Origin: a virus
Lineage: Duplodnaviria > Heunggongvirae > Uroviricota > Caudoviricetes
Direction: 5' to 3' (one strand)
DNA: 64,000 nt
IMG/VR virus record: IMGVR_UViG_3300042889_001305
In this document: positions 4,646-36,498 of the stretch, in pieces
Layout: the number at the start of each line of letters is the position of its first letter
Position numbering within the stretch: the first letter of the stretch is position 1
The notes under the pieces: generated by a model
Seen by the model: the letters and a program-made list of their open reading frames with translations, nothing else
Databases searched by the model: none
What the model was told of the DNA's origin: nothing
Translations under genes and position numbers: made by a program

Positions 4646-7153
4646 TTAAAAAGAAAAGAATTTTTCTGCATTTTTTTGTTCACTCATTACTTCACCCCAA
4701 CCTAAGGCGTTATAGAAATCTTGTAACTTACCTTTTAATTCCGCTTCGAAGATTCGATTATGGTCGGTATAAGTTGTAATGAAATCAACTATTTCTTGTG
4801 GGTCATCATATCCTGTGAATCCCAATCCATCAATTCCTAATGGATTATTTTTAAGATAGACCCATTTGATTTTATCACCATCTTTCATTGGTGAATATTT
4901 GAATGGGGCTTTAAAGTGGGTTAAACAATCATTATATAGAATTGCTGCTTTAACGTGAGCAGGTGCACCTTTTTCCATATGGAATAATTGTCTTTTCTTT
5001 GGTGAATATTTTGAAAGGTTTTTAACTGCTGAGTTCTTTGCAATTTCATGTATCGGTCTACTTACCATACTCTTTTTAAACGCAAGAACAAATGCTGTTA
5101 ATTCCTCTTCAGTTTTACCTTTTAAGATATCTATTAGAACCGTCCCCATACAATCTTGAAACGCCTTAGGGAATGATGACCTTCTAACATCCAATCCCTT
5201 TACATCCAATCTATCTACGGCAACACCATTGTTTGAAATAATCCATTGTGCGTATCTCTTTTTTGCAATCCAAATACCTGCCCTAGCAACGTATTCCTTT
5301 TTAATTTCTAATCGGTGATTTTGAACATTGAAAAACTTATCTGAAAGAATATCATAAAACTTATTTAGATAATCTTGCATTTCACCTGCGATTCCATCTA
5401 CCAATACTGCAACTTCACTATCTGGCATTTCCTTCCAATTTGGATGACGGAAATCTAAAAGTGGTACTGCAGAAAAAAATACTGAATCCGTATCAATGTA
5501 AATGTTAGAATCCACATCAGTAGTACCTAACTCTTTATTGTATTTGATGTTTCCCATATTCGCAGAGTTCTTAATAACCGTCTGACCCGTAGTCGTAACT
5601 GCCTCCGCATTATCAACATCATAAAACCGAAAGGCAGGAAGACCAAGCACACCATAAAGAGAGTTAAGTAGAATTTTTTGAACCAACTGTCTTTTGCCGT
5701 AAAAGGCATATTTTTCTTTATTACCCTCCTGGCCGTACTTCTTTTCCAACTTTCTAAACTCCACCCTTTCATTGAACCAAATATCTAAAATTTCAGGAAT
5801 ACATCCTATTTTATCTTTACGATATAACACACCATTTGATGATATTGTTAAATCTGCCTCTTTAATATACTTTTCTAAATTATCACGTGAGATTTTATTA
5901 TCACCCATTTGATAGTAATCAACCTCCCTCTTCATATATTTCTGAACATCCCAATCTGCAATTTTAGCAACTTTGGTTTCAGGAGAAATGTTGATTGTCA
6001 TGATGATTGATGGATATAGAGATGTTAAATCCAAATCATATACCCAATCATACTTACCCACAATCGGGTCTTTTACATACGCACCGATAAACTTTTCTTG
6101 TTCATTATCTCTCAATGCCTGCATCATTTCCTTACGGTCTGATGGTTTATTCGGAGCAACTAATCCCTTACGTTTAAGGAAACATAACAATGCACCCTCT
6201 AAATACTTAGATGAATAAACGAAGTCCTCATAGGGAACGTGTCCTGCGTGGCAGATACCTCTACATAAATCAATGAATTGTAATTTCTTATCCAACTCCA
6301 CAACAATCTCAACATCGACTAAGTTATACTCAATGAACTTTTCAATGTCTTCATTAAATAAATCATCCAATGAACCTTGATATTCAATCTTACCCTTACC
6401 TAATTCAATCGTACCAATGGTATCTAATCGATAGTTAGGTAATTCGTTGTAGTTAAATTTCTTATAGAGTGATAGGTAATCCAAACAACTTACTCCTGCA
6501 AAGAACCATCTTTGACGATATGGAGAATAAAATGCTTGACCAATAGGTGATAACCTCTTTGCTTGAGATTCACCTAAGATGCGTTTCATTCGGTTGAATA
6601 GATACGGAATATCAAAATTATCAATGTTCCAACCAGTTAAAATATCCGGTGCAATACCTTCATAAAGTTCTAAGAACTTCATACACATATCCCTTTCATC
6701 TCTGAATGGTAGAATGATTGCCTTATCGGTTTTTCGTTCCACCATCTTACCTTTCTTATCCATAATCAATACCCAATATTGATTGGTGATATTATCTTGT
6801 AGACCAATAGCGGTAAGTTCGTTTTCAGCTTTTTCGGTATCAGGTAATCCACTTTCCATTTCCACCTCAATATCAAATGTCATTGTTACGATGGTATCTG
6901 ATGGAATATCGGAATCGGTATAAGTATCGACTAAAACACGTGTTGTTTCGGGTACATCCGATTCAAATAAATTTGGGTCATCCCCTTTGAATTTATAAAT
7001 CTTAGTTAATTTATCACCATAAATAGAACGGGCTTCACCTCTCTCTGCTCTTTCGTATGCGTATCTGGTGTATGGGAAGGTTCGGTAACCTAAATGAGAA
7101 TCCCAAAGGTGAATGAGATTTCGTTCCCTTTGATAATATATGTTTTTGTACAA
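4646..7153 (-). CDS. Family B DNA polymerase (T4 gp43-like)
   Basis: DLTSLYPSII (motif A, DxxSLYPS) and YIDTDSVFF (motif C, YGDTDS) are present. It also has exonuclease-like N-terminal blocks. 835 aa. The apparent start codon is TTG (7151-7153) with no in-frame ATG nearby. Confidence 0.9.
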   Translation of the reverse strand: MYKNIYYQRERNLIHLWDSHLGYRTFPYTRYAYERAERGEARSIYGDKLTKIYKFKGDDPNLFESDVPETTRVLVDTYTDSDIPSDTIVTMTFDIEVEMESGLPDTEKAENELTAIGLQDNITNQYWVLIMDKKGKMVERKTDKAIILPFRDERDMCMKFLELYEGIAPDILTGWNIDNFDIPYLFNRMKRILGESQAKRLSPIGQAFYSPYRQRWFFAGVSCLDYLSLYKKFNYNELPNYRLDTIGTIELGKGKIEYQGSLDDLFNEDIEKFIEYNLVDVEIVVELDKKLQFIDLCRGICHAGHVPYEDFVYSSKYLEGALLCFLKRKGLVAPNKPSDRKEMMQALRDNEQEKFIGAYVKDPIVGKYDWVYDLDLTSLYPSIIMTINISPETKVAKIADWDVQKYMKREVDYYQMGDNKISRDNLEKYIKEADLTISSNGVLYRKDKIGCIPEILDIWFNERVEFRKLEKKYGQEGNKEKYAFYGKRQLVQKILLNSLYGVLGLPAFRFYDVDNAEAVTTTGQTVIKNSANMGNIKYNKELGTTDVDSNIYIDTDSVFFSAVPLLDFRHPNWKEMPDSEVAVLVDGIAGEMQDYLNKFYDILSDKFFNVQNHRLEIKKEYVARAGIWIAKKRYAQWIISNNGVAVDRLDVKGLDVRRSSFPKAFQDCMGTVLIDILKGKTEEELTAFVLAFKKSMVSRPIHEIAKNSAVKNLSKYSPKKRQLFHMEKGAPAHVKAAILYNDCLTHFKAPFKYSPMKDGDKIKWVYLKNNPLGIDGLGFTGYDDPQEIVDFITTYTDHNRIFEAELKGKLQDFYNALGWGEVMSEQKNAEKFFSF

Positions 7154-7180
7154 ATCTGTAACTTTTTATGTGTAATTTTA

Positions 7181-7546
7181 TTATTTTATTGATTCATTAA
7201 ATCTTCTTCTCTCTTCCATTGATTTCCAATTCACACCATCAATCAAATCATCAATGGTATCAAATGATGGAGAATTTATCAGACCACCACCCATTAACAT
7301 AACAATCTTACCAGATGAGGATTTTTTAATACTACCGGTAGATATTACTTGCCAAAAGTTTCTTTTACCTTTATATTCATCAGGAACGATAAAATCAATA
7401 ATATTACCTTTACCTTTGATTATATTTAACTTTTCAGTCTTACTAATTTTTTCCAAAGATTTATTAGCAGGGATTCCTTCAGCTCCTTTAAATTGTTTTC
7501 CGCCGAATTCGGTAATTAGATTCTTTAACTTTATCATATTGGACAT
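7181..7546 (-). CDS. Hypothetical protein
   Basis: The track ORF starts at a TTG (7594). I prefer the in-frame ATG at 7544-7546 (MSNMIKLKN...), which is preceded by AAGGA. No recognisable motif. Confidence 0.4.
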   Translation of the reverse strand: MSNMIKLKNLITEFGGKQFKGAEGIPANKSLEKISKTEKLNIIKGKGNIIDFIVPDEYKGKRNFWQVISTGSIKKSSSGKIVMLMGGGLINSPSFDTIDDLIDGVNWKSMEERRRFNESIK

Positions 7547-7613
7547 CCTTGTTATTTGTTTATAAATATAAAATAAATTGGATTTAACACCCAATTTTAC
7601 ATTTTTGTTTTAA

Positions 7614-7856
7614 TTATAGTTTTTTTAATGGAACTAATTTACCATCAACTATTTTATGAGGTATCCCATCTTTAATTACAAATGGTGGTTTTTTATTTAT
7701 ATCAATTCCTTGATTAAGTAACTCTTGTTTTATTTGTTTTTTACGCAGTTCTTCCTCTCTACGATTGAACCATTTTTCAGCTTTTAAACTACCTTCTTTT
7801 GGTAAAGATATCTTATGTGGTTTAAATGAACTCTTCTTTTTTATATCACCTGCCAT
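7614..7856 (-). CDS. Hypothetical basic protein (80 aa)
   Basis: ATG start. Lys/Arg-rich. It sits in the operon between the PLP enzyme and the polymerase. Confidence 0.4.
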   Translation of the reverse strand: MAGDIKKKSSFKPHKISLPKEGSLKAEKWFNRREEELRKKQIKQELLNQGIDINKKPPFVIKDGIPHKIVDGKLVPLKKL

Positions 7857-7868
7857 TATTTTATTTTT

Positions 7869-8708
7869 TTAAAATTTGTAAATTCCACCAATATTCCAGA
7901 ATAGAATAGTTCCTTCGATTTGGTCTATGTTTTCTTCTAACCACTTCCATTGCTTTACATCCCAAAATTGGTTGCAAGGGAATGGGGTTTCGTAACCATC
8001 TAATCTATTCTCAAATAGATACTCTGATTTTCGTATATTTAGGGGAATTGGAATCCCACTCTTTTTAAGTGTTTTATTGATTGAACTAACCGATGATACA
8101 CATGTTGTCCAAATCTTCTTTTTAACTTGTGGAAAAAACTCTTTAAGTTCCTCTCTATAATATCCTCTTGCTAATCCTGCAAGAGTTACACCACTACCAG
8201 ATGATACTACTAAATTATCAAAATGGGCAAGGGGTTGAATTCTATCTGCAAGATAATCTTTATAGAAATCGTGGTCAAAAGCGTAAGGTAACATTTGCCA
8301 TCCCCTTTCTCTTGCATCTTTCTTTAACGAATTATACATAATCTGCATCATATTAGGTCTAATTGGATATAGGTTTGTTTTAGGATGCATTTCCTTAATC
8401 ATTCTCAAATATTCCTGTGATATCTTTTTAGAATCAGGGTGTGCTGCATAAAATTCAATTCCCAATTCCTCACATATTGCACTCAATGCCCATGCTGTCC
8501 AACTACCATCTACGGAAAGGTGAACCAGTGGTTTTGATTTATCAATATATTTTTTAACCAATTCAAATAATGCTGCTAATTTACCCCACGGCGGTAATAT
8601 CATACCATCGCCCATCAAGTCATCCCTCTTTACCCATACTTCTCTACCCTTAATGTGATAAAGTTCTAATGGGGTATCTTCGGTTAATCCTTTTAGTTTT
8701 AAATCCAT
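7869..8708 (-). CDS. PLP-dependent enzyme, fold type II (ACC deaminase / D-cysteine desulfhydrase family), shortened
   Basis: TPLELYHIKGREVWVKRDDLMGDGMILPPWGKLAALFEL parallels E. coli DcyD TPLEYL..GREIFIKRDD......GNKLRKLEFL, placing the PLP lysine in WGK. The glycine loop VVSSGSGVTLAGLA parallels VVASGSAGTHAGLA. It is 279 aa against about 330 for the family. Confidence 0.7.
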   Translation of the reverse strand: MDLKLKGLTEDTPLELYHIKGREVWVKRDDLMGDGMILPPWGKLAALFELVKKYIDKSKPLVHLSVDGSWTAWALSAICEELGIEFYAAHPDSKKISQEYLRMIKEMHPKTNLYPIRPNMMQIMYNSLKKDARERGWQMLPYAFDHDFYKDYLADRIQPLAHFDNLVVSSGSGVTLAGLARGYYREELKEFFPQVKKKIWTTCVSSVSSINKTLKKSGIPIPLNIRKSEYLFENRLDGYETPFPCNQFWDVKQWKWLEENIDQIEGTILFWNIGGIYKF

Positions 8709-10204
8709 TGATATATTCCTCCTGAGTTTGACGTTAATTCTCCTTTCATTTTTCTATGAGAGAACCCGTGTATTTTTTCAAAGTTATCACCAATGACATG
8801 AATCATATTTTTTCTTTTCTTAAAATTAATAGATTCATCTTTTAAAATGATTTCTTCGATGTATTGTTTAAAATTTGTTCCTTTTTGAAATGCTCTTTTT
8901 TCCTGGTCTAAAATCTCATCAGGCAGTTTACCTCTGAATGCATTAGCAAGTGGTAATTTCCATTGACCTCCTTTAGATAAGTATTCATCGGTTAAATTAG
9001 TAGTATAGTTTAAAAATTCGGTATCAAAGAATGGGCATCTTAATTCGATTGTTCCATAATTCATAAAGATAGTATTACCTCTTAATAGGTTACCATAGTA
9101 TTGTTTTTCAAATAACTTTTTACGAACATCACTCCAATCTGGTTTCTTACTGAACATACGGAATGTACCATACGAACCATAGGATTCATCAGAACCCTCA
9201 CCACTAAATGCTACCTTAATACCATCTCTTGCCATTTGTTCTGCAATAAAGGATTGTAGGATACCCACTTCCATTTGAACGGTCGATGGATATTCGATTA
9301 CTCTAATTGAATCTAAAAATCTTTGTTTAATTATTTCTTCATCTTTAGGAACAAATACTTCAACTAACTCCACTCCTAAATACTCCGCACATACTCTTGC
9401 CTTTTGTAAATCCTTTGAGGTTTCATCAAATGCAATTGTGTATGCTTTTAGGTTTGGTATACGTTGTGATAGTAGGTAGGTAATGATTGCAGAATCAATC
9501 CCACCACTTAGTGATGTAGCAATTGGTACATCTGATAATAATCTTTTATCTACTGCAGTTTCTAATAACTTAAATGTAGTTTCACCAACTTCTTCATGTG
9601 ATGCCGGTATAGTAGGTTCGTTTGAGAATTGAAAATAATAATCTTTATGAACTACAATCGTATCAGTATTTAAATCAATTTCTACCAATGAATTCTTAGG
9701 TACAAACTTAATATCTGAACTCTTTACCTGTGTTGTAATGGATTTCAATTCACTAGCGATGATATAGTTGTTTGTATTGTGAATATAAAGGGGCAATTTA
9801 CCCACCCAGTCCCTCGATAGTATCAACTTATCATTATCGTATATAATGAATGAGAACATACCCTCTAATCTCTTTAATTCACCTTCCTTGTAAAGATATA
9901 GAATAATTTCTGAATCTGAATTAGATTTAAAGTGATACCCCCTTCCTTCGTATTCTTTACGCAATTGAGGATAGTTCCAAATCTCACCATTGACTACCAA
10001 TTCAACTCCATCCCATTCCATAGGTTGATTACCCAATGGTGAAGTATCGTTGATTGATAATCGGTTATGTCCTAAGATAATATGTTTATCGTTATATTGG
10101 AATTCTTTAATACCACGATTATCTCTACCACGATGCTCAATTGCTTCGAGCATTACATTCACATCATCTCTTTTATATCCAATCGTTGCTACAATTCCAC
10201 ACAT
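8699..10204 (-). CDS. Asparagine synthetase (glutamine-hydrolysing)-like amidotransferase
   Basis: The N-terminal MCGI carries the Cys2 nucleophile of class II glutamine amidotransferases. The PP-loop SLSGGIDSAIITYL is an ATP pyrophosphatase motif. 501 aa. Its stop overlaps the start of the PLP enzyme gene. Confidence 0.85.
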   Translation of the reverse strand: MCGIVATIGYKRDDVNVMLEAIEHRGRDNRGIKEFQYNDKHIILGHNRLSINDTSPLGNQPMEWDGVELVVNGEIWNYPQLRKEYEGRGYHFKSNSDSEIILYLYKEGELKRLEGMFSFIIYDNDKLILSRDWVGKLPLYIHNTNNYIIASELKSITTQVKSSDIKFVPKNSLVEIDLNTDTIVVHKDYYFQFSNEPTIPASHEEVGETTFKLLETAVDKRLLSDVPIATSLSGGIDSAIITYLLSQRIPNLKAYTIAFDETSKDLQKARVCAEYLGVELVEVFVPKDEEIIKQRFLDSIRVIEYPSTVQMEVGILQSFIAEQMARDGIKVAFSGEGSDESYGSYGTFRMFSKKPDWSDVRKKLFEKQYYGNLLRGNTIFMNYGTIELRCPFFDTEFLNYTTNLTDEYLSKGGQWKLPLANAFRGKLPDEILDQEKRAFQKGTNFKQYIEEIILKDESINFKKRKNMIHVIGDNFEKIHGFSHRKMKGELTSNSGGIYQWI

Positions 10205-10209
10205 ATTAT

Positions 10210-10632
10210 TTATTTTATATCAGCTTCTACGTCTTTTAAATTCATTTCTATCATTTTCAACTCATCATTTAACCAATCATATTTTCCAAATGCTATATCC
10301 TTTATCTTTGCATTGATTTCCCAACGTTGAATAATATCTCCTACTACATTTAATTCTAATAATTGAAACGAAATTGTATTAGTTTGTTTAGATTTATTTT
10401 CTGCTAATCCCTTGCAAATAATTGAAGCAATTGGAATTTCTGAAGTTTCATACATCTCAATTGTTAAATCACCCCAATTTACCCACCCATCATCATAAAC
10501 ACAAACTACTTTTAATTCACTCATTTTATGGACCGCATATGTTGGGATAACAAATGGGGAATTAAATTCAATTAAAAATCTATTTACTTTTTGTGGTTCA
10601 AATGCTACGAACTCTTGTTGTTCTTTTTTCAT
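10210..10632 (-). CDS. Hypothetical protein (140 aa)
   Basis: ATG start that overlaps the stop of the TS-like gene (translational coupling). No recognisable motif. Confidence 0.45.
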   Translation of the reverse strand: MKKEQQEFVAFEPQKVNRFLIEFNSPFVIPTYAVHKMSELKVVCVYDDGWVNWGDLTIEMYETSEIPIASIICKGLAENKSKQTNTISFQLLELNVVGDIIQRWEINAKIKDIAFGKYDWLNDELKMIEMNLKDVEADIK

Positions 10633-10633
10633 A

Positions 10634-11332
10634 TTATTTATTTAATACTTCTAATAACTTATGAGTCTTTTTCGTTTCATCATTCATTTTACCGATATGA
10701 CAAGAACAAGCTAAAACTGAAACTTTCCCTAACTCCATACCACTTTCTCTCGCTAAGAACTTACCCATCTCAACCAATGCAGTGTAATCTGCGTAACCTG
10801 ATTTGGATACTCTATTTGAACGAATGATTGATGTTAGGTAGATTTTACCACCACGAGGTTTAATATCAATCCCTAACATACAAGGTTGTGAGTATGGATT
10901 CCTAGCATCTCTGCTCGGGTCAAAGATAATCAATTCACATCTCTTAACTGCTTTACCAGTTTTAAGGATTTTAATTACATTTTCTACTTGATTAAATGTT
11001 CCTTGCCATGCAATCATTCTACCCCAATATGAATCATGCCAGTGGTCTTTAATGAATTTGTATTCCAATCCCTCTTCGGCTACAAAGAATGGGTTATCCG
11101 ATACCTTTGGTTGTGGTTCTAAGAAGGTTACGGTCTTTGCGTAATCAATTCTATCATCTCCCATAATTTCTCTAAAATGTGGGTCGAACCATTCATCAGA
11201 TTTAAATTCGGTGATTTCTGTCATTACGTTTAACTCTTCGGTTAAATCGCCTACCTTTACGCCATTGGCAATAAGGTGTTTAGATACCTTTACCCATGCA
11301 TCTCCCGGAGATGTTGCTTCTATAACTGTCAT
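10634..11332 (-). CDS. Thymidylate synthase-family enzyme (dNMP 5-hydroxymethylase/methylase-like), short form
   Basis: SQPCMLGIDIK carries the Pro-Cys nucleophile. KIYLTSIIRSNRVSKSGYADYTALVEM parallels TS [27 protein letters not shown], and VSVLACSCHI parallels the TS C-terminal block. It is 232 aa, shorter than ThyA and closer in size to phage dCMP/dUMP hydroxymethylases. Confidence 0.75.
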   Translation of the reverse strand: MTVIEATSPGDAWVKVSKHLIANGVKVGDLTEELNVMTEITEFKSDEWFDPHFREIMGDDRIDYAKTVTFLEPQPKVSDNPFFVAEEGLEYKFIKDHWHDSYWGRMIAWQGTFNQVENVIKILKTGKAVKRCELIIFDPSRDARNPYSQPCMLGIDIKPRGGKIYLTSIIRSNRVSKSGYADYTALVEMGKFLARESGMELGKVSVLACSCHIGKMNDETKKTHKLLEVLNK

Positions 11333-11338
11333 ATTATT

Positions 11339-12559
11339 TTATTTTATTTTTTTCCAAATCCAAATGGGTTCACCAAATGCATTATTTTTATTGAGTTCTG
11401 TTTTTTCTTTGAGTTCTTCTGCAAAATATTCAGATTTAGCATTTCCTGCACCGCCGGAATTAAACCTTTTTGTCATTTCCATTCCAATACAACCCATATA
11501 TTCTAATCCCTCTGATTTAATAAAGTCATTCATAGCATTTACAATATCAACATACCCCTTATCTGGTGCTGAAAATACATCTGCAATATTAACTGCTAAT
11601 AACCCACCCTTCTTTAAGGTAGGGATTATTTTTTTAATTGTTTTATGTAGGAAATTGGTATTCCAATCATCTATCTTTTTATAGCGTAAATAACTTTGAG
11701 TATCATGTGTGGAATACTTTTCAGTATTGAAGTATGGAGGTGAAGTGAAGATTGTATCAAAAAAGTTTTCATATTTGGAATAATCCACATCTTCTGCCGG
11801 TAACTTTATCAGTTCCACAGTTTTAGGATTCTCAAAAAACGTTTTGTGTTTCTGATAAAATTCTATTTGGTTTTCATAATTTGGGTGATTATCTAAATTA
11901 GGGTCTATACCAACATAATGTTTACCCGTTTCACTTGCAAAGAATCCACATAATCTATCTCCCCAACCTGCTGAAAAATCTAATATATTCTCACTTTGGA
12001 ATCTATCATAAAATGCTTTAGCAATTACAGGTTTGAATTGTGATGCCACATACTTTCGTAATGTAGTTGCCATCTTTAGTGTTTCCTTATTTACATCAGT
12101 TAGGACTTGTTCTAATGTGAAGAATGCCCGAACTATGGTTTTTATACCATTAACTGTCTGCCATGTCTTCCAACCTGATGGTGTTCTTGACCAATCTACC
12201 TTCCATCGATTTTCTATATGGAATGGGTTGGATGCGTTATTACCAACATTCGTTCTTTTAAAGTAATAATTACTACTATCAAATGTAAGTGGATATGCAG
12301 ATTCCCTTTCATTACGCGGAAACCATTCTCCCTCCACTAAAATATCCGGCCACCAAGTACCCTTTAACTTTTTATATGCATCAATCGTTTCTTGTTCTGT
12401 AATAATAGGAATAGGTGGTGGATAAGTATGTAATACTTCTGATAATGTTTCTACTATCTCTTCCTTTTCAAATGTATTTAGTATATGTTTCCACTCCTCC
12501 TTATCAATATTGATATAGGGGGTCATTCCATAAAACTTTTTGAAATATTCTTTTATCAT
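11339..12559 (-). CDS. SAM-dependent amino-methyltransferase-like protein (SPPY motif), paralog P2
   Basis: LDFSAGWGDRLCGFFA (motif I) and FTSPPYFNTEKY (motif IV). The N-terminus MIKEYFKKFYGMTPY matches the P3 N-terminus MYIEYFDKFYGMTPY. I therefore take the ATG at 12557-12559 rather than the track's TTG at 12667. AGGAAAA lies 12 nt upstream. Confidence 0.6.
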   Translation of the reverse strand: MIKEYFKKFYGMTPYINIDKEEWKHILNTFEKEEIVETLSEVLHTYPPPIPIITEQETIDAYKKLKGTWWPDILVEGEWFPRNERESAYPLTFDSSNYYFKRTNVGNNASNPFHIENRWKVDWSRTPSGWKTWQTVNGIKTIVRAFFTLEQVLTDVNKETLKMATTLRKYVASQFKPVIAKAFYDRFQSENILDFSAGWGDRLCGFFASETGKHYVGIDPNLDNHPNYENQIEFYQKHKTFFENPKTVELIKLPAEDVDYSKYENFFDTIFTSPPYFNTEKYSTHDTQSYLRYKKIDDWNTNFLHKTIKKIIPTLKKGGLLAVNIADVFSAPDKGYVDIVNAMNDFIKSEGLEYMGCIGMEMTKRFNSGGAGNAKSEYFAEELKEKTELNKNNAFGEPIWIWKKIK

Positions 12560-12563
12560 TAAA

Positions 12564-13796
12564 TTACATTTTCCTAAATACCCATACCGGTTCGCAGAAA
12601 GTTTTACCGGCATTTTCAATTGCCTTTTGCTTTTCTTCTTCGGAATATCGGTCTTCATCTCCCTCAATCATTGCACCTGCTCCAATTGAACCTGGCCTCT
12701 TAGCCATTTCCATACCTAAACATCCTTGATACTCTGCACCTTCTAATGTGGAAATAAAATCGTTCATTGGGTTAGTGATTTCCTGTTGACCTTTGCCATC
12801 ACCCTTTGAGGATGCATATACATCTGCGATATTAACTGCTAGATACCCACCCTTACGGATAGTAGGCCATACTTTTTCAATCGTTGCATGTAAGAATAAT
12901 TTATTCCATGCATCAATATTTTTATATCGAATCCAACTTTGAGTATCATCATATGAATATCTCTCTACGTTGAAATATGGTGGCGAACTGAATACAATAT
13001 CAAAGTAATCGGTATACTCACTATAATCCATATCCTCTGCGGGAGAACAATGAAAGGTTGCCCTCTTATCAGTTTCAAAAAAACCATTATTCTTTTTATA
13101 GAATTCGGCTTGTTTTTCGTATATTGGATGATTTTCTTTACGCGGGTCAATACCTACATAATGCTCACCATATTCTGATGCGAAAAATCCACATAATCTA
13201 TCACCCCATCCAGCAGAAATATCTAATACATTCTTTGCTTGAACGAAATCATAAAGTGCCTTTGCTACGTTTGGTTTGAACTGAGAACAAATATACTTTC
13301 TTAAAGATAGACAAGTTCTTAGGGTATTTTTACTAACCTCATCAAATTTTAGGGTATACATTCCACCGATTAGTGAAAACATAAAATCAGGGTTATTCCA
13401 AGTACGGAATGGGCCAGGCGATACTGTCCCATCTACGCTCCATCTATTTGCTTGTTGAAAATGATTCGATGCCCCATTACCAGTATTCAGCCTTCTTACA
13501 TATTGTTGTTTACCTTGAAATCCTAATGGATAACGGGTTTCAGATGCCTTACGAGGAAACCACTCACCTTCGGTTAGAAGTTCGTGATAACGAGTTCCTT
13601 TTAATTTAAGATACTCTTTTCTTGCATCCTCTTCAGAAATATCTGCATATGGTAATTCATATGTCATACATACTTTGGCAAGAGATTCCTTAACGTCTTC
13701 TCTTTGGTATGTTTTTTTAATGTGAGACCACTCTTCCTTACCGATATAAAGATATGGTGTCATACCATAAAATTTATCAAAATACTCTATATACAT
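12564..13796 (-). CDS. SAM-dependent amino-methyltransferase-like protein (SPPY motif), paralog P3
   Basis: LDISAGWGDRLCGFFA and FSSPPYFNVERY. It sits in tandem with P2 and is collinear with it over the whole length. ATG start, with a host-type promoter 36 nt upstream. Confidence 0.6.
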   Translation of the reverse strand: MYIEYFDKFYGMTPYLYIGKEEWSHIKKTYQREDVKESLAKVCMTYELPYADISEEDARKEYLKLKGTRYHELLTEGEWFPRKASETRYPLGFQGKQQYVRRLNTGNGASNHFQQANRWSVDGTVSPGPFRTWNNPDFMFSLIGGMYTLKFDEVSKNTLRTCLSLRKYICSQFKPNVAKALYDFVQAKNVLDISAGWGDRLCGFFASEYGEHYVGIDPRKENHPIYEKQAEFYKKNNGFFETDKRATFHCSPAEDMDYSEYTDYFDIVFSSPPYFNVERYSYDDTQSWIRYKNIDAWNKLFLHATIEKVWPTIRKGGYLAVNIADVYASSKGDGKGQQEITNPMNDFISTLEGAEYQGCLGMEMAKRPGSIGAGAMIEGDEDRYSEEEKQKAIENAGKTFCEPVWVFRKM

Positions 13797-13831
13797 AACC
13801 TTTTATTATTTTATTCAGTTTATATTTTATC

Positions 13832-13863
13832 AAAGATACGAAAAATATTCCGTATTTCCAAAT
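13832..13863 (-). promoter_or_regulatory. Bacteroidetes sigma-A-type promoter (minus strand TTTG-N20-TATCTTTG) heading the modification operon
   Basis: The reverse complement reads TTTGGAAATACGGAATATTTTTCGTATCTTTG, which is -33 TTTG, a 20 nt spacer and -7 TAnnTTTG. The spacer contains the inverted repeat ATACG-N10-CGTAT. Confidence 0.6.
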
Positions 13864-14048
13864 CAAATGTGTGTCCACGTTTGACGTTTTACAATTTCTG
13901 AAATATTCCACTTACTAACTTTAAAGTTTCTTGCTATAACATTAACTGAAAACCCTTTCTTAAAAAGGTCTCTTATTGATATAACTTGCTCGTTTGTTAG
14001 TTTAGCCTTAGGATGATTTTCCCCTCGTCTATTATTGGATACATTCAT
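13863..14048 (-). CDS. Small helix-turn-helix protein
   Basis: GENHPKAKLTNEQVISIRDLFKKGFSVNVIARNFKVSKWNISEIVKRQTWTHI resembles the C-terminal DNA-binding module that I recall from phage HNH/GIY homing endonucleases. It is freestanding at 61 aa and overlaps the thioredoxin stop. Confidence 0.4.
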   Translation of the reverse strand: MNVSNNRRGENHPKAKLTNEQVISIRDLFKKGFSVNVIARNFKVSKWNISEIVKRQTWTHI

Positions 14049-14295
14049 TTATTGCGTTTATATATGCCATCTTCGAAGACATTCCAGTAAAGCGATTTAT
14101 TTCTTTACCATCTTTTTCAATGATTACGGTCGGTACTGAACGAATTCCGTACTTTGTTGCCTCATCATATGCGATATCTACATCGTAATCTTCAAATTTA
14201 ACATTTGAAAATTGATTTTTTATTTCATTAATAACCGGAGCTAATGCTCTACAAGGGCCACACCACACTGCTGAAAATTTCTTAACTGTTACCAT
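14032..14295 (-). CDS. Thioredoxin/glutaredoxin-like protein, likely the RNR reductant
   Basis: WCGPC active site. The track start is GTG at 14325. I prefer the ATG at 14293-14295 (MVTVKKFSAVWCGPC). It lies immediately downstream of nrdA. Confidence 0.8.
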   Translation of the reverse strand: MVTVKKFSAVWCGPCRALAPVINEIKNQFSNVKFEDYDVDIAYDEATKYGIRSVPTVIIEKDGKEINRFTGMSSKMAYINAINECIQ

Positions 14296-14314
14296 TTTGT
14301 TTTTTCCTTTTTGT

Positions 14315-16096
14315 TTATCCTTCACAACTTACACATTCAGGGTCCATTGCCTTTGTAGCAATATCGCCTCTTAATACGGATTCCGTTCTCATGTAGTACA
14401 ATGTCTTAACTCCTTGTTTCCAAGCCTCCATTGTTACCTGATTAATCCATTTAGGTTCTGCAATTGCAGGGAATGCTAAGTTTAGTGAAACTGATTGGTC
14501 TATATATTGTTGTCTAATACCCGCCTGTCTTACTAAATCTAATTGGTTAATTTCTTTGAATGTTTTAAATACATCCTTAACATTAAATGTTTTATGTTTG
14601 TCTTCAGGTAATACCTCTTCACAAAGAATTGCTTTACCATTTACAAAACACCAATTATCTAATTCTGCTATATCTTGAATAGAACCACCATCTTCTAAAA
14701 TCTTATCCCAAATTTCTTTGGTATTGATTCCCACTTTTTTAAGTAGTTTTTCTAATTCAGAATTTCTACGAATGAATGTTCCTTTTGAAGTTTGTTCCGT
14801 AAATACATTTGCTGCCCACGGCTCAATACCAGAACTTACATCTCCACTCAATTTAGAGTTAGAAACTGTTGGTGCGATTGCACGTAAGTGAGTATTACGG
14901 AAACCACTATCTCTACACCAAAGTGGTTCACCATATTCAGATGCCATATCTCTACTTGCTCTTTCAGATTCAATTTTCATTTGAGAAAATATCTTACGAG
15001 TTTCAAATTGAGCAGGCATTCCTTCAAATGGAATTCCTCTTTGTTGTAGGTAAGTATGCCATCCTAATACACCTAACCCCAATGCTCTACCTTTTTCTGC
15101 TGAACGAACTGCATTTTCAAATCCTTTCATATTCTTAGCCTTTTGTATGAATTCTGAAAGAACTCCATCTAAGAAATAAGTTGATGTGTAAATCAAATCC
15201 GTATCCTTCCACTCATCATATTTTGCTAAGTTTAAAGAACTTAGGCAACAAACGAATGAATGTGATTCATCGGTATGTAATACAATTTCAGAACAGATAT
15301 TAGTCATAAAAACTTTCAATCCATTTTGTTTGTACATAGATGGGTTTTGCTTATTAACATTACCCTTAAATAAGATATAAGGTTCACCTGTTGCTTTTCT
15401 TTTCTGAAGTAGTTTACTCCATTTTCTTCTAGCCTCAGATTCTCCATCTTGTAGTTTTCTCATAAACTTATCACCCACAACTGCACATTGATGAAGATTT
15501 AAACATTGACGATTAACATCACCCTTCGGTTCTCTAATCTCCAACCAATCTTCAAAATCTTTATGTTCGATGTTTAAGTTTACTGATGCTGCACCTCTTC
15601 TTACCGAACCTTGATTCGTTGCAAGAATAGTTGAGTCATATATTTTAGCAAATGGAACTACTCCATCAGATGTACCATTACCGGTAATCTTTGCACCTGC
15701 TGGTCTGATTTGGTTTATACCAATACCAACTCCACCACCATGCTTTGCTAATAGCATTAATTCTAAATTCTTTGAACCTATATCAAAAATGGAATCTGCT
15801 ACATCTATACCAAAACAACTAATAGGTAATCCCCTATCAGTACCTGTGTTTGATAATACCGGTGTAGCTAAACATAACCATCCTCTCCATATATAATCGA
15901 AAAATTTAGATGCTAGTTGCGGTTGGCCTAATCTCTGTGCTACTTTTGTAGACACTCTCCAATACGCATCTTTCGGTGTTTCTCCCTCAATCAAGTAACC
16001 CTTTGATATGGTTTTAACATATACTTCGGTATTACCCCACTCCGGAAAATCGACACCAAGTTCCCATCCAAATTCTTCACCTTGATTTTTTGCCAT
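14315..16096 (-). CDS. nrdA: Ribonucleoside-diphosphate reductase alpha subunit (class I, no ATP cone)
   Basis: NICSEI (NxCSEI active site), LAKHGGGVG, and the C-terminal pair of Cys CVSCEG. 593 aa. Confidence 0.9.
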   Translation of the reverse strand: MAKNQGEEFGWELGVDFPEWGNTEVYVKTISKGYLIEGETPKDAYWRVSTKVAQRLGQPQLASKFFDYIWRGWLCLATPVLSNTGTDRGLPISCFGIDVADSIFDIGSKNLELMLLAKHGGGVGIGINQIRPAGAKITGNGTSDGVVPFAKIYDSTILATNQGSVRRGAASVNLNIEHKDFEDWLEIREPKGDVNRQCLNLHQCAVVGDKFMRKLQDGESEARRKWSKLLQKRKATGEPYILFKGNVNKQNPSMYKQNGLKVFMTNICSEIVLHTDESHSFVCCLSSLNLAKYDEWKDTDLIYTSTYFLDGVLSEFIQKAKNMKGFENAVRSAEKGRALGLGVLGWHTYLQQRGIPFEGMPAQFETRKIFSQMKIESERASRDMASEYGEPLWCRDSGFRNTHLRAIAPTVSNSKLSGDVSSGIEPWAANVFTEQTSKGTFIRRNSELEKLLKKVGINTKEIWDKILEDGGSIQDIAELDNWCFVNGKAILCEEVLPEDKHKTFNVKDVFKTFKEINQLDLVRQAGIRQQYIDQSVSLNLAFPAIAEPKWINQVTMEAWKQGVKTLYYMRTESVLRGDIATKAMDPECVSCEG

Positions 16097-17513: not shown

Positions 17514-18620
17514 TTACTCAAAAAATTGATTTATTTTTTCTTTCACTTCCGGTTTCACTTCTACACGGTTTCCTTTTATTGGTTTGCTAACCGGTCTGTT
17601 TTTTTCATATTCAATTCTTGTTTTCGAAATTTCAAAGTATTCTTTTTCTCTTTCAATACCAATAAAATCAAAACCACCTCTAATTGCTGCTTTACCAGTA
17701 CTTCCACTTCCCATAAACGGGTCTAATATCGTTCCATCGTTTTTAGTAACCAAACGAATAAGGTATAGCATCAAATCCGTTGGTTTGACAGTCGGGTGTG
17801 TGTTATTACTTCCTTCGTTTCTATCACTCTTTGATGTTTTAGGACAGTAGAAAAATCTACTAGCACCACCAACATCTCCCAATCCACCTAAATTTGCAGC
17901 TTTAACATCTAATGCATAGTTTCCATATTTACCGTTTTTGCCCAATTCTCCCATTGATTTATCCCCACTACCTCCTGGTGATTTTGATACTCCACTTTGT
18001 TCATCCAATAACCTACCTGCTTCTTCATCAAAGATTACATTTGCTGGAAATCTGCCTATTGTATCTGCTATGTTAGCGTTACTACTATCATAACCATCAT
18101 CTAATCCTGTCAATGAGGGTCTACCATTTGCTTTTGATTTATAATCACCATTAAGTTCAATCCTGCAACCATCTATGTTTATCCCACCAGTTCCCCATTC
18201 TAAAACATTCTCTGCTACTGTGCTTTCACTCAAAGGTTTTCTTGCCATTACAATAGGTTCATGTGCCGGTTTAAGAGCAGTTCCCCAACCTTGCCATTCT
18301 TCTAACTTATGTCCTATGTTATGTGATTTAGGAAACCCTGAACCATATATCCACATAATCTGGTCTCTAATCTCAAACCCTGCATCTTCAATTCTTACAG
18401 CCATTCTGTGATAAGTTCTACTACCCGCGAATGAAAGGATATGACCTCCTGGTTTTAGAACACGAAGGCATTCTTCCCATATCTGCTGTGATGGAACATC
18501 ATAATCCCAGTGTTTGCCCATAAATGCAAGTCCATATGGCGGGTCAGTAACAATACTATCCACCGAATTATCATCTAATTCTTTAAGTTTATCTAAACAA
18601 TCTCCTAGTAATAATTTCAT
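17514..18620 (-). CDS. DNA methyltransferase (N6-adenine or N4-cytosine, DPPY type)
   Basis: SIVTDPPYGLAF (motif IV) near the N-terminus, and DPFMGSGSTGKAA (motif I) near the C-terminus. This is the beta-class order of the N6_N4_Mtase family. 368 aa. Confidence 0.85.
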   Translation of the reverse strand: MKLLLGDCLDKLKELDDNSVDSIVTDPPYGLAFMGKHWDYDVPSQQIWEECLRVLKPGGHILSFAGSRTYHRMAVRIEDAGFEIRDQIMWIYGSGFPKSHNIGHKLEEWQGWGTALKPAHEPIVMARKPLSESTVAENVLEWGTGGINIDGCRIELNGDYKSKANGRPSLTGLDDGYDSSNANIADTIGRFPANVIFDEEAGRLLDEQSGVSKSPGGSGDKSMGELGKNGKYGNYALDVKAANLGGLGDVGGASRFFYCPKTSKSDRNEGSNNTHPTVKPTDLMLYLIRLVTKNDGTILDPFMGSGSTGKAAIRGGFDFIGIEREKEYFEISKTRIEYEKNRPVSKPIKGNRVEVKPEVKEKINQFFE

Positions 18621-25088: not shown

Positions 25089-25559
25089 TTATTTTGCCCA
25101 TTTACCATTAGAAACTATTTGTGCAATAATTCCATATACTGATAGGTCTTGAAAGGTATCTTCTATTGATTCCCCAACTGAATCCTCTTTACTTAGGACT
25201 ACCAATTGTTTTAATCTTTGGATTTTATCGTTCATTCTAAACCATAATCCCGTTAGTGATAATTTCTTATCCTCAGCAGTTTCTAATTTAGTACCAACCG
25301 AAATATTGTTTGGGCCGTAGTTTGATTGTTTTAGACAAAACAATTCGTATTGAGTAAACATAAGTCGTTTAAACTCATCCGTCATTTCTGGATATTCTTT
25401 TTCGACCTGTTCTATGATTTTGGGATTATCATATTTGATAAATGCAACCTCATCATCTTTAGTCTCCAATTTAGGAGCGATGTTCATTTGAAGTTGATTC
25501 TTCACCTGTTGGCCTATAATCTTAGGGCCACTTGATTGTGGGGGTGTGTTTTTTGCCAT
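25089..25559 (-). CDS. Hypothetical protein (156 aa)
   Basis: ATG start. A host-type promoter lies 28 nt upstream. Confidence 0.45.
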   Translation of the reverse strand: MAKNTPPQSSGPKIIGQQVKNQLQMNIAPKLETKDDEVAFIKYDNPKIIEQVEKEYPEMTDEFKRLMFTQYELFCLKQSNYGPNNISVGTKLETAEDKKLSLTGLWFRMNDKIQRLKQLVVLSKEDSVGESIEDTFQDLSVYGIIAQIVSNGKWAK

Positions 25560-29093: not shown

Positions 29094-29759
29094 TTATTTT
29101 TGTTTGAATTTAAACCCTGTTAGTTTTTCAATATCCGAAACCTCTACTTTATTATTATTTATACCATCTGGTTTAGATAAGTCGTTCTCAAATAAAAACG
29201 CAAACCATTCTTTATTTCTAACTACATAAAAAACTTTCCAACATTGTGTCGGTACGGAAATCTTTCCTATCTTTTTTAACTCACCCACATTTCCTGCCCA
29301 CACATGAACGGAATCTGATATTAGAGCAACATCTCTTGTTAGGGTTTCTAAGGATTTCCAATCTCCCGCATTTAATCTATGGTATTGTGCTACCATATTT
29401 GAATAATAGAAACTTTCATCTTGTATCGCCGGAGTTTGACATTGATTTGATTTTGCCGGCATTAGATGACCTCTATCAAATCCACTTCCTACATAATCGT
29501 TTCCAATATTGGTTTCGTTTGGTAAAAGGGGGTCGGGTTTAAAATTATCTTTACGTGGAATTGGATTTGGACAACCAATTTTTGCTTTGGTTTCCCACCA
29601 TTCTACTAAGACAGGATATCTTTTTGATTTACTAAAGTGTGAGGTGTAATTTGTGTGTTTTAAAACCACTACATCTTGTGCGAATGTTACAATTGTAACG
29701 AATGATAGCATCAACGTCATTAACGTAATCCCCACTATTGTTCCTAAATTTTTTCTCAT
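29094..29759 (-). CDS. Exported non-specific DNA/RNA endonuclease (beta-beta-alpha-Me, Serratia/EndoG family)
   Basis: N-terminal signal peptide MRKNLGTIVGITLMTLMLSFVTIVTFAQD. It carries the DRGH motif as GSGFDRGHLMPA. 221 aa. Confidence 0.75.
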   Translation of the reverse strand: MRKNLGTIVGITLMTLMLSFVTIVTFAQDVVVLKHTNYTSHFSKSKRYPVLVEWWETKAKIGCPNPIPRKDNFKPDPLLPNETNIGNDYVGSGFDRGHLMPAKSNQCQTPAIQDESFYYSNMVAQYHRLNAGDWKSLETLTRDVALISDSVHVWAGNVGELKKIGKISVPTQCWKVFYVVRNKEWFAFLFENDLSKPDGINNNKVEVSDIEKLTGFKFKQK

Positions 29760-34997: not shown

Positions 34998-35729
34998 TTA
35001 TATTTGTAGGTATATATACTCTGAAAACTCCTTATTTCCATTGGGTGAAAGATGCCAATCTCCATTATTTAATTCAGAATCACAAGTCCACCCTTTATTT
35101 ATGGTTAATTCTCGTAAATTTGTTAAAGCCGGTTCAATATATTTCCTAATATTATCACCCATTAATTTATCCCATGATAATAATAATGTTGATATATTAT
35201 TTTTTTTATCATCAATACCTTTTAAAGTATAGTATGTTGATAAAATAGAATTTCGTTGTAAAAATATTTCATTTGATAATTTTTTATTGAATATATTACA
35301 AAAGGTAGTTAACTCCGCATCGTAATATGGATATTCTTCATTAAAGTTTCTATGAGGTGAAAACGGAACAATTGAATTCAGGTCATTTTTTTTTAAAATT
35401 GAATGCTGAAATGCTATTCTATTCCAATAGGTTAATTGAAAAATTATTAGTGAATCATCATATATTTCACGAGGTAATCTATCTCCATATAGTTCTATTT
35501 GCTTATCATTATTAGGATGCGGAAATTCTAATTTAGAATTTATACAATTTAAATAATATAAATTTTCAATGTTTGAACTACCATTTATTGAATAGTTGTA
35601 TACATTTTTAGCTGATATATTTAACTTATCCGCTAACAAATCTACATATGATTTGCAATTAGGGTCAATAGAATTGGTATTTAACGAATGAGAACACCCA
35701 AAAATATATAAATGTTTGTATTTATTCAC
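34998..35729 (-). CDS. Hypothetical protein, weakly SGNH/GDSL-hydrolase-like
   Basis: The N-terminal LYIFGCSHSLNT resembles GDSL block I with Asp replaced by Cys. GTG start. Low confidence. Confidence 0.35.
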   Translation of the reverse strand: MNKYKHLYIFGCSHSLNTNSIDPNCKSYVDLLADKLNISAKNVYNYSINGSSNIENLYYLNCINSKLEFPHPNNDKQIELYGDRLPREIYDDSLIIFQLTYWNRIAFQHSILKKNDLNSIVPFSPHRNFNEEYPYYDAELTTFCNIFNKKLSNEIFLQRNSILSTYYTLKGIDDKKNNISTLLLSWDKLMGDNIRKYIEPALTNLRELTINKGWTCDSELNNGDWHLSPNGNKEFSEYIYLQI

Positions 35730-36498
35730 CCCAATACTTTTGTCTTAATTCGTACATATCAATTGCCTCTCTTTTCATTTGATTTCCAGCATGAAAATAT
35801 GCACCTTCTTTAAGATAACCACCTAAGAAATTTCTTCTCATTCTATTAGGGTCTTTATTTGGTTCTGACCCATGTACTACATGTGAGTGTAAAAGTGCAA
35901 CTTGTCCTTTTTTCAAATACCCTTCTATCTTACGGAAATCATGCCCTTCTGGCATTACACAACTTTTACCTCTCTCACTTCTCCAGTTATCGGTATTTGT
36001 TGCTTTTCTTTCTTCGTTATCTTCGATTGGTAAAACCGGTAATCTATGTGAACCTTCATAGTTCCATACTGCACCATTTTCAGGGTCGTGATTATCTAAT
36101 GCCAATGCAGTGTTGATAATTTCATTGTGTCCACAACCAGTATAGAATGCATTTTGATGTTGGTCTCTACCCAATTCGCCCTTTGGTTTGTAATAACCCC
36201 AAGTTTGTAATCCAACAACTCCACCTTCCATTAGGAATTCTGCTGCTTCTAAAATTTTTGGATGTGAAAATAATTTAGCTATTTTTTCTGATTCTCTATG
36301 TGGATACATAATGGGTTCGAACTCTTGCCATTTTCCTGGTTCTTTTTCATTACGTTCTACACGTAAACGGTCTAATTCTTCGTTGATTTCATCTACTTCT
36401 GCTTCGGTTAATAATTCCAAAACTGTGAAGCCTCGGTATCTCCAATCAAATGACATTTGTTGAAGTTCTTCCGTTGTAAGGTGTTTGTATTTTTGCAT
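35722..36498 (-). CDS. Fe(II)/2-oxoglutarate-dependent dioxygenase, PhyH (phytanoyl-CoA dioxygenase) family
   Basis: HQNAFYTGCGH and ALLHSHVVHGSEPN...R fit the PhyH HxD/E...H...R arrangement. 258 aa. Confidence 0.6.
   Translation of the reverse strand: MQKYKHLTTEELQQMSFDWRYRGFTVLELLTEAEVDEINEELDRLRVERNEKEPGKWQEFEPIMYPHRESEKIAKLFSHPKILEAAEFLMEGGVVGLQTWGYYKPKGELGRDQHQNAFYTGCGHNEIINTALALDNHDPENGAVWNYEGSHRLPVLPIEDNEERKATNTDNWRSERGKSCVMPEGHDFRKIEGYLKKGQVALLHSHVVHGSEPNKDPNRMRRNFLGGYLKEGAYFHAGNQMKREAIDMYELRQKYWGE

Follow-up and report, generated by a model that had tools for sequence, protein, structure and literature searches.

A 64,000-nt stretch of DNA from an uncultured T4-like phage (IMG/VR record IMGVR_UViG_3300042889_001305; hereafter the window) carries three genes for related proteins with an SPPY motif, which we refer to as P1, P2 and P3. 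In the examined part all genes lie on the minus strand, and this holds for every feature given below by its window coordinates. P1 (2220–3854; 544 aa) combines an N-terminal region of about 300 residues with an SPPY methyltransferase domain and adjoins a clamp-like gene. P3 (12564–13796; 410 aa) consists of an N-terminal domain of unknown fold (residues 1–168; 13293–13796) and an SPPY amino-methyltransferase domain (residues 169–410; 12567–13292), and P2 (11339–12559; 406 aa) is its tandem paralog with the same two-domain architecture. A preliminary description of this DNA had called the three proteins paralogs, and their similarity proved to be far above chance: P2 and P3 are 51% identical over 412 columns along their full length (E = 4e-154), while the similarity of P1 to P3 (29% identity, 244 columns, E = 6e-24) and to P2 (34% identity, 222 columns, E = 4e-28) is confined to the C-terminal ~230 residues of P1. 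A six-frame tblastn search of the window with each of the three proteins found no fourth copy.

P2 and P3 stand head-to-tail, as had been proposed, with the ATG of P2 at 12559 lying four bases beyond the P3 stop. The mechanically called open reading frame (ORF) of P2 opens at a TTG at 12667, within P3, but that start is probably wrong because the P2/P3 alignment opens exactly at ATG 12559, which is most likely the start used. All three proteins keep D-x-S-x-G-W-G-x-R in motif I, the S-adenosylmethionine (SAM)-binding loop, followed by (T/S)SPPYFNxExY in the catalytic motif IV. Motif I is DISAGWGDRLCG in P3 (residues 192–203; 13188–13223), DFSAGWGDRLCG in P2 (11945–11980) and DSSSGWGGRILG in P1 (2862–2897), and motif IV is FSSPPYFNVERY in P3 (residues 269–280; 12957–12992), FTSPPYFNTEKY in P2 (11714–11749) and FTSPPYFNREQY in P1 (2565–2600). 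The order within the catalytic domain is motif I (DxSxGWGxR), an acidic motif II, motif III and motif IV ((T/S)SPPYFxxExY), with motif I preceding motif IV in P1 and P2 as in P3. Other shared features named in the preliminary description held in part: the C-terminal EP-[IV]-W block is present in P2 (EPIWI) and P3 (EPVWV) but reads EPIFV in P1, and P2 and P3, which align over their full length, have the N-terminal domain in common, but its Y-x-E-Y start belongs to P3 only, P2 beginning with MIKEYF.

The AlphaFold2 model of P3, built from 70 diverse relatives, had a pLDDT of 94.8. Residues 169–410 were predicted to form a class-I methyltransferase fold of seven strands in canonical order, in which motif I is rich in glycine and strand 2 ends in an acidic residue, and the EPxWxF block was placed within the predicted C-terminal beta-strand (residues 399–409). 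Among 70 diverse family members of 28–59% identity, the P3 residues D192, G196, G198, R200, Y213, D217, Y226, D266, S271, P272, P273, E278, Y280, W297, N322 and E402 were invariant in 70 of 70, and Y274 was conserved in at least 90% of them. The invariant set includes all SAM-binding and catalytic positions and P1, P2 and P3 keep every one, so the three proteins are unlikely to be dead. Catalytically dead proteins with a disrupted SPPY pocket, the alternative that had been held open, are thus not borne out, the SPPY and SAM-binding positions being intact across the 70 members. Judged by these residues, P1–P3 are very probably active enzymes of amino-group methyltransferase fold.

We then compared P1–P3 with described methylase families. 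PF01555 (gathering threshold 26.7 bits; 221 model positions) scored 26.8 bits with P2, 26.0 with P1 and 17.1 with P3, in each case over model positions 2–106 only. The match stops at half of the model because motif I precedes motif IV in P1–P3, and neither by score with coverage nor by the permuted motif order are they members of PF01555. In the 70 relatives, the catalytic half matched PF01555 in 66 (best E = 2.8e-9), and a family profile searched against the PDB matched the Thermus DNA methylase TTHA0409 in motifs IV–VI only. In that segment the PF01555 methylases (TTHA0409, PDB 2zie; rotifer N4CMT) resemble P1–P3 in TSPPY, in a helix with a conserved W and in GG..(I/V)NI.D; they differ in carrying motif IV before motif I and in having no counterpart of the P1–P3 N-terminal domain, while the SPPYFxxExY extension and the GWGDR loop are specific to the P1–P3 family. 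Generic SAM-methyltransferase Pfam models matched the region upstream of the PF01555 segment. In PHROGs, P1–P3 fall in phrog_12517, of unknown function; NCBIfam, including its RsmD and Trm models, gave no match for P1–P3, and a search of the PDB with the P3 sequence gave nothing useful. All three proteins carry SPPY, an instance of the catalytic SPP(Y/F) tetrapeptide of N4-cytosine DNA methyltransferases. The earlier reading of SPPY as an N4-cytosine signature holds for most N4-cytosine DNA methylases, and mutation of the motif abolishes N4-methylcytosine formation (PMC8885841).

P1–P3 were also compared with four other kinds of enzyme, none of which fitted. For an RsmD/Trm11-type enzyme, as in the automatic name given by the Joint Genome Institute (JGI), P1–P3 had neither a PF03602 (Cons_hypoth95, RsmD family) nor an NCBIfam match, and only 4 of the 70 relatives matched PF03602, all weakly; RNA-binding domains such as THUMP had no Pfam match in P1–P3 either. 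The gamma-class models PF02384 and PF07669 had no match in P1–P3, with 13 of the 70 relatives matching Eco57I weakly, and whereas the M.TaqI/Eco57I/HsdM type has its target-recognition domain C-terminal to the catalytic domain, or a helical N-terminal domain as in HsdM, the accessory domain is N-terminal here and without a fold match in the PDB, HsdM included. CmoX was rejected on a Tyr in place of the Cys of SPPC and the lack of a PF00145 match. The dPreQ1 methyltransferase DpdM, a DUF3109 protein (PMC10516641), combines its DUF3109 fold with a metal-binding CxxxCxxCC motif, whereas P1–P3 have a class-I fold and the motif is absent.

The family to which P1–P3 belong is very large, uncharacterised and mostly viral. 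It joins a new N-terminal domain to a catalytic half that resembles PF01555, and its motifs stand in the canonical order. P3 had 2856 homologs in a set of 5.8 billion proteins and P1 had 2181; at 50% identity the P3 family fell into 4596 clusters (176 with E below 1e-30), and most of the matches listed among the P3 clusters had the full two-domain architecture. The homologs bore the names ‘hypothetical protein’, ‘RsmD’, ‘SAM-dependent methyltransferase’ and ‘DNA methyltransferase’ in their sources, none based on experiment. In the 50,697 phage genomes on deposit there were ten matching records, each matching only in part and within the catalytic domain, and these were Bacteroides phages, Vibrio phages and two uncultured phage records of ~485 kb. 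A near-identity DNA search of 50,697 phage records gave no match, and the closest isolate by DNA polymerase was Microcystis phage Mel-JY01 (51%), of which we found no mention in the literature. A Foldseek search against viral models (BFVD) detected full-length structural homologs in salmon gill poxvirus, Satyrvirus and pithovirus-like giant viruses (A0A0H4Y1D9, A0A3G5AD75, A0A481Z6B6), with a TM-score of about 0.7 over ~420 columns, and some of the giant-virus proteins are annotated as N4C DNA methylases.

In prokaryotes, scanned with one genome per species, full-length P3-like genes were found mostly on contigs of metagenome-assembled genomes (MAGs), several with a related DNA polymerase as well, and full-length P1-like genes were found in Limnohabitans, Devosia and Sneathiella genomes, adjoining genes that sequence inspection assigned as integrase-like. 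Legionella proteins of 563–971 aa (L127, L136, L137, L161) join a P3-type N-terminal domain to an SPPY catalytic domain. When the genes neighbouring bacterial homologs were clustered, no restriction-enzyme partner appeared; the clusters consisted of integrase- or resolvase-like genes (by inspection), a GNAT family and a second methylase-like family. Homologs on mobile elements adjoin, at six loci, a gene family assigned by inspection to a beta-class motif-I signature. Some family members are fused to helix-turn-helix (HTH) domains, the start of one homolog is overlapped by a ParB-N/HTH gene, and others carry a LAGLIDADG homing-endonuclease domain before the P3-like part or two complete methyltransferase modules, in tandem, in one polypeptide (P0126, P0149; P0216, P0241, P0255, P0268).

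To follow the genes among related phages, we compared 82 loci, 80 from IMG/VR around P3 orthologs and two from metagenomes, each spanning P3 with 10-kb flanks; most of the phage loci belong to one clade. P3 was present in 82 of 82 at 59–100% identity, usually after thioredoxin and ribonucleotide reductase (RNR) genes. In diverged clades, where DNA polymerase identity falls to 47–64%, P3 was always the more conserved where both had diverged (76 versus 60%, 78 versus 57% and 65 versus 54%). In 41 loci a P1 ortholog, 41–99% identical, stood next to the polymerase and clamp-like genes. A different 351-aa paralog follows the helicase gene in three loci (L001, L033, L034), with a similar 350-aa gene in L009, and several paralogs per genome are normal in this clade. 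Three paralogs had seemed a lot for one phage, but relatives routinely carry two or three, and P3 and P1, as core genes of the clade, do not amount to an arsenal against restriction at strain level.

P2 is an accessory gene. It was found in 16 loci, 15 of them at 70–78% identity and one, L005, with a 99.5%-identical copy. The duplication is old, because the 70–78% orthologs occur in clades whose polymerase is only 54–57% identical. P2 orthologs are strongly conserved in all regions (mean top-residue frequency 0.87–0.90). P2 is absent from L004, L006, L007 and L077, where P3 is 98–100% identical. Two junctions were aligned, L004 5680–5790 and L006 11180–11290 against window positions 11339–12620; in both, where P3 is 99–100% identical, the P3 end leads directly into what lies beyond P2 in the window, and the switch point lies inside a conserved GAACC..T.TGG stretch common to P2 and P3. 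P2 thus looks to have been deleted when the two paralogs recombined through their homologous 3′ ends.

The N-terminal domain of P3 is mainly helical and basic (isoelectric point (pI) 8.8), and a structure search returned no PDB fold match for it; we regard it as a candidate target-recognition module. Between the P2 and P3 ortholog groups, 27 positions differ while being conserved within each group; 16 lie in the N-terminal domain, and 11 of these cluster at residues 114–151. This is what diverged target recognition would look like. P1 had been given a different N-terminus. It does look different, but a motif-consistent alignment pairs PP...F..L, N.FF and S..D/W between P1 residues 51–142 and P3 residues 47–146, a weak match by hhalign (E = 0.013, probability 3%).

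The separate DPPY methyltransferase reported in the window (17514–18620), which lies between the RNR beta and DnaB-like helicase genes, is a solid beta-class, CcrM-like enzyme with the permuted motif order of PF01555 (E = 1.4e-36, 126.9 bits, positions 1–220; phrog_67, E = 6e-80), and tblastn over the whole window detected no similarity between it and P1–P3. None of the 82 related loci carried it, and four loci whose flanking genes are 97–100% identical (L005, L006, L007, L077) have a spacer of ~350 bp in its place. The gene is a lineage-specific insertion.

Downstream of P2 lies a variable cassette (7869–11332), for which cooperation with P2 and P3 is putative at most. It comprises a 232-aa divergent member of the thymidylate-synthase (TS) family (TS-like, 10634–11332), orf140 (10210–10632), a 501-aa asparagine-synthase-like (AsnS-like) gene with an N-terminal glutaminase domain (8699–10204) and a pyridoxal-phosphate (PLP) fold-type-II enzyme (7869–8708). 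Gaps of 1–6 nt separate P3, P2, TS-like, orf140 and AsnS-like, and AsnS-like and PLP overlap by 10 nt. A scan of 7000–14600 found promoter and terminator sites no more frequently than in shuffled sequence, with no internal terminators by consensus. The TS-like, AsnS-like and PLP trio was found in ~19 of the 82 loci, on either side of P3, and orf140 in two. Two AsnS-like types, 33–36% identical to each other, exist, and one or the other was within 6 kb of P3 in 53 of the 82 loci; AsnS-like genes were found in 14 of 50,697 cultured-phage records. P3 is not specifically part of the cassette, because it stays constant while the cassette comes, goes, switches side and gets replaced. The putative modification operon of the preliminary description therefore stands as tight packing in this window but not as a constant link across the 82 loci.

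The best PDB match of the TS-like protein was the cytidine monophosphate (CMP) hydroxymethylase MilA. The catalytic Cys is kept (PCM), and both proteins have Asp where classical TS has Asn (Asn177 in E. coli thymidylate synthase); in the TS-like protein an Arg replaces the folate-contacting Asp169 of TS. The Asp in place of Asn177 suggests a cytosine substrate for the TS-like protein and hints at a C5-modified cytosine in the phage. The AsnS-like protein passed the TIGR01536 equivalog cutoff (282.6 versus 267.1 bits), with ~140 C-terminal residues outside the model, and the second AsnS type adjoins a 2-hydroxyacid dehydrogenase and a PLP enzyme in some relatives. A role in amino-acid metabolism is as plausible for the AsnS-like gene as one in DNA modification.

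The gene beside P1 (3858–4571), previously taken for a clamp, encodes a 237-aa product without a Pfam or PDB sequence match (phrog_12062, unknown function) and is syntenic beside DNA polymerase in relatives; a clamp loader was not recognised among the window ORFs scanned, and orf450 (865–2217), which follows P1, had no Pfam, PHROGs or NCBIfam match. Just upstream of P3, a 61-aa HTH protein (13863–14048) that is syntenic in many relatives resembles the C-terminal HTH of phage HNH endonucleases. Further away, we noted a 156-aa protein with the DUF1599 ‘nucleotide modification associated domain 1’ (25089–25559; E = 4.7e-6), which hints at base modification, a PhyH-type Fe/2-oxoglutarate dioxygenase (35722–36498; E = 5e-15) and a DNA/RNA non-specific endonuclease (29094–29759; PF01223, E = 4e-36), which raises the question of how the phage spares its own DNA.

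We give about an even chance to P1–P3 being active SAM-dependent DNA amino-methyltransferases, probably forming N4-methylcytosine (m4C) and each with its own specificity. The class-I domain would methylate an exocyclic amino group using SAM, and the phage DNA would be methylated post-replicatively, with cytosine N4 as the likeliest target and adenine N6 as the next. The N-terminal domains would give the paralogs different short recognition sequences, and methylation would shield the genome from host restriction. P3 and P1 are old syntenic core genes of the replication module and P2 is an ancient tandem duplicate of P3, lost repeatedly, it seems, by recombination at the homologous 3′ ends. Links to DNA within the family suggest the same substrate, namely the HTH fusions, the ParB-N/HTH overlap, the location in the replication module, the association with mobile elements and the N4C annotations in giant viruses. 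M.FokI, a two-domain methylase for an asymmetric (type IIS-like) site, offers a partial precedent: systems of this kind are like P2/P3 in the tandem head-to-tail arrangement, the fused modules in relatives and a divergence mainly in the putative recognition domain, and unlike them in that no restriction partner is present here and near-identical strains keep P3 but have lost P2.

Several observations weigh against this reading. The PF01555 scores of P1 and P3 are below threshold and that of P2 is barely at it, the match covers half of the model and the motifs run in another order than in PF01555. The closest amino-methyltransferase folds to the P3 model are TrmN, Trm11 and Trm14, which form N2-methylguanosine (m2G) in tRNA, and METTL5, and no DNA methylase is among the best 60 fold matches. 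The whole proteins are mildly acidic (pI 5.8–6.3), no full-length ortholog was found in the cultured phages of INPHARED, a conservation of P3 above that of DNA polymerase is unusual for a sequence-specific orphan methylase, and the recurring GNAT and PP-loop ligase partners described below are not accounted for by plain methylation.

We assign a small chance to a substrate other than DNA, which could be RNA (an amino group methylated to m2G, N6-methyladenosine (m6A) or m4C in host or phage tRNA or rRNA), a free nucleotide or a glutamine residue in a protein. The best amino-methyltransferase folds include, with the tRNA enzymes, the rRNA m6A enzyme METTL5 and HemK, and the JGI name RsmD, the conservation of P3 at the level of a housekeeping enzyme and its place beside nucleotide-metabolism genes (RNR, thioredoxin, TS-like) point the same way, as do homologs in poxvirus and Legionella, settings without an obvious need for host DNA methylation, and the effector-like neighbourhood in Legionella bononiensis, with ankyrin-repeat and kinase genes. 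PP-loop enzymes and ATPase-GNAT fusions are typical partners in tRNA modification (TilS, TmcA). TrmN, Trm11, Trm14, METTL5 and HemK/PrmC resemble P1–P3 in their gamma order, but sequence identity is 12–18%, no Pfam match supports the relation, they carry D/NPP(Y/F) and not SPPY, and P1–P3 lack the THUMP domains or partner proteins on which those enzymes rely. Against a substrate other than DNA, P1–P3 match neither PF03602 nor THUMP-like RNA-binding domains, and sequence similarity directs to the PF01555 DNA methylases, to which the HTH and ParB associations in the family and the lack of tRNA genes in the window (tRNA scan) may be added. It is very improbable that one or more of the paralogs is an inactive partner or regulator, such as a heterodimer subunit: METTL3-METTL14 is an amino-methyltransferase heterodimer with one inactive subunit, tandem and fused double modules exist in the family and P2 is dispensable in near-identical strains, but all SAM-binding and catalytic invariants are kept in the three copies and P2 orthologs are as strongly conserved as noted above.

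The preliminary description had also raised the transfer of groups other than methyl, and the GNAT and PP-loop ligase partners give this idea new, circumstantial support. We consider it rather unlikely, though worth weighing, that P1–P3 act in a DNA hypermodification pathway rather than in simple methylation, either by moving a carboxymethyl (from carboxy-SAM) or 3-amino-3-carboxypropyl (from SAM) group to a base amino group, or by N-methylating an amine on a base already hypermodified; further processing of the adduct would fall to GNAT acetyltransferases, PP-loop/ATP-grasp amide ligases and PLP enzymes. A small GNAT gene (160–192 aa) lies immediately upstream of P3 in 31 of the 82 loci and overlaps the P3 start in L001 (9462–10010). 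Distant homologs in six unrelated genomes, from MAGs or single cells, have a member of the same GNAT family as a neighbour, but the window lineage is without GNAT. In L009, L010 and L052 a P-loop ATPase-GNAT fusion (390 aa; L052 1016–2188) occupies the slot of P2, a pairing that recalls ATP-dependent N4-cytidine acetyltransferases. AsnS-like genes, rare in cultured phages, are close to P3 in the 53 loci mentioned above, yet P3 needs no such gene nearby, because about one-third of the loci have none within 6 kb. On a gut phage-like contig the gene order is methyltransferase, GNAT and QueC-like PP-loop enzyme, a Legionella bononiensis protein (L137 7239–10154) fuses a P3-like module to a QueC-like domain (E = 1.1e-8), and the Satyrvirus structural homolog, of 699 aa and possibly a ligase fusion, is annotated as glutathione synthase. 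The cassettes could, however, be genes of amino-acid metabolism that happen to occupy a variable region, because the AsnS equivalog cutoff is passed and 2-hydroxyacid dehydrogenase and PLP genes are neighbours in relatives, and the locus counts are not independent because most phage loci belong to one clade. To our knowledge, moreover, all characterised (S/D/N)PP(Y/F) enzymes are methyltransferases.

Two described types of hypermodification bear on this question. In cyanophage S-B43, the methylase homolog CmoX makes 5-carboxymethylcytosine with carboxy-SAM and the AsnS-like ligase CmoY amidates it, and putative CmoY-like ligases with a glutaminase domain form a large cluster (PMC12783734). S-B43 is like the window in being a T4-like phage with a methyltransferase homolog and an AsnS-like ligase, and the 501-aa AsnS-like protein has the architecture of that glutaminase-bearing cluster. 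The hallmarks of CmoX, however, are a C5-methylase fold, SPPC, a carboxylate-binding Arg and CmoA as partner (PMC12783734). P1–P3 differ from this C5-cytosine methylase homolog and its catalytic Cys in having SPPY and no PF00145 match; the scanned window ORFs included no homolog of CmoA or CmoX, and the link between P3 and the ligase is positional only. In phages M6, ViI and PaMx11, GNAT and PLP enzymes tailor hypermodified thymidine (PMC8989533). These phages and the window, with its relatives, share a TS-family enzyme, a PLP enzyme and (in relatives only) a GNAT near DNA-modifying genes, but the neighbouring ORFs scanned had no match to a 5-hydroxymethyldeoxyuridine (5-hmdU) DNA kinase or to aGPT-Pplase, those pathways contain no amino-methyltransferase, and the TS-like protein of the window looks cytosine-type and not uracil-type. 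Apart from PMC12783734 and PMC8989533, literature searches on N2-methylguanine in phage DNA, on N4-acetylcytosine in phage DNA and on AsnS together with thymidylate synthase in hypermodification yielded no relevant paper.

A more speculative form of this alternative, to which we attach a low probability, makes the P3 family the entry enzyme of an undescribed amino-group DNA hypermodification that places a carboxyl-bearing alkyl group on cytosine N4 or adenine N6. Its partners would acetylate (GNAT), amidate (AsnS-like, QueC-like, ATP-grasp) or decarboxylate (PLP) the adduct, and one possible product is N6-carbamoylmethyl-adenine, the Mom modification of phage Mu, reached by a different route. 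T4-like phages abundant in aquatic habitats, giant viruses and Legionella proteins would have the pathway in common.

If P1–P3 are DNA methylases, as in the reading we prefer, they represent a class that is large, still without annotation and equipped with a new type of recognition domain. Freshwater and marine viromes hold its sequence clusters by the thousand, and annotation pipelines now name its members ‘hypothetical protein’, ‘RsmD’ or ‘DNA methyltransferase’ nearly at random. Their specificities, if learned, would aid the reading of environmental methylomes and might give new m4C tools, and the near-identical genomes that differ by P2 or by the DPPY gene would allow motifs to be assigned without culturing, from existing long-read metagenomes. 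If the partnership with GNAT and amide ligases proves functional, the family would be a second ‘handle-and-tailor’ type of DNA hypermodification, acting on amino groups, and such amino-group hypermodification, if true, would be a trait that phages and giant viruses have in common with an intracellular pathogen.

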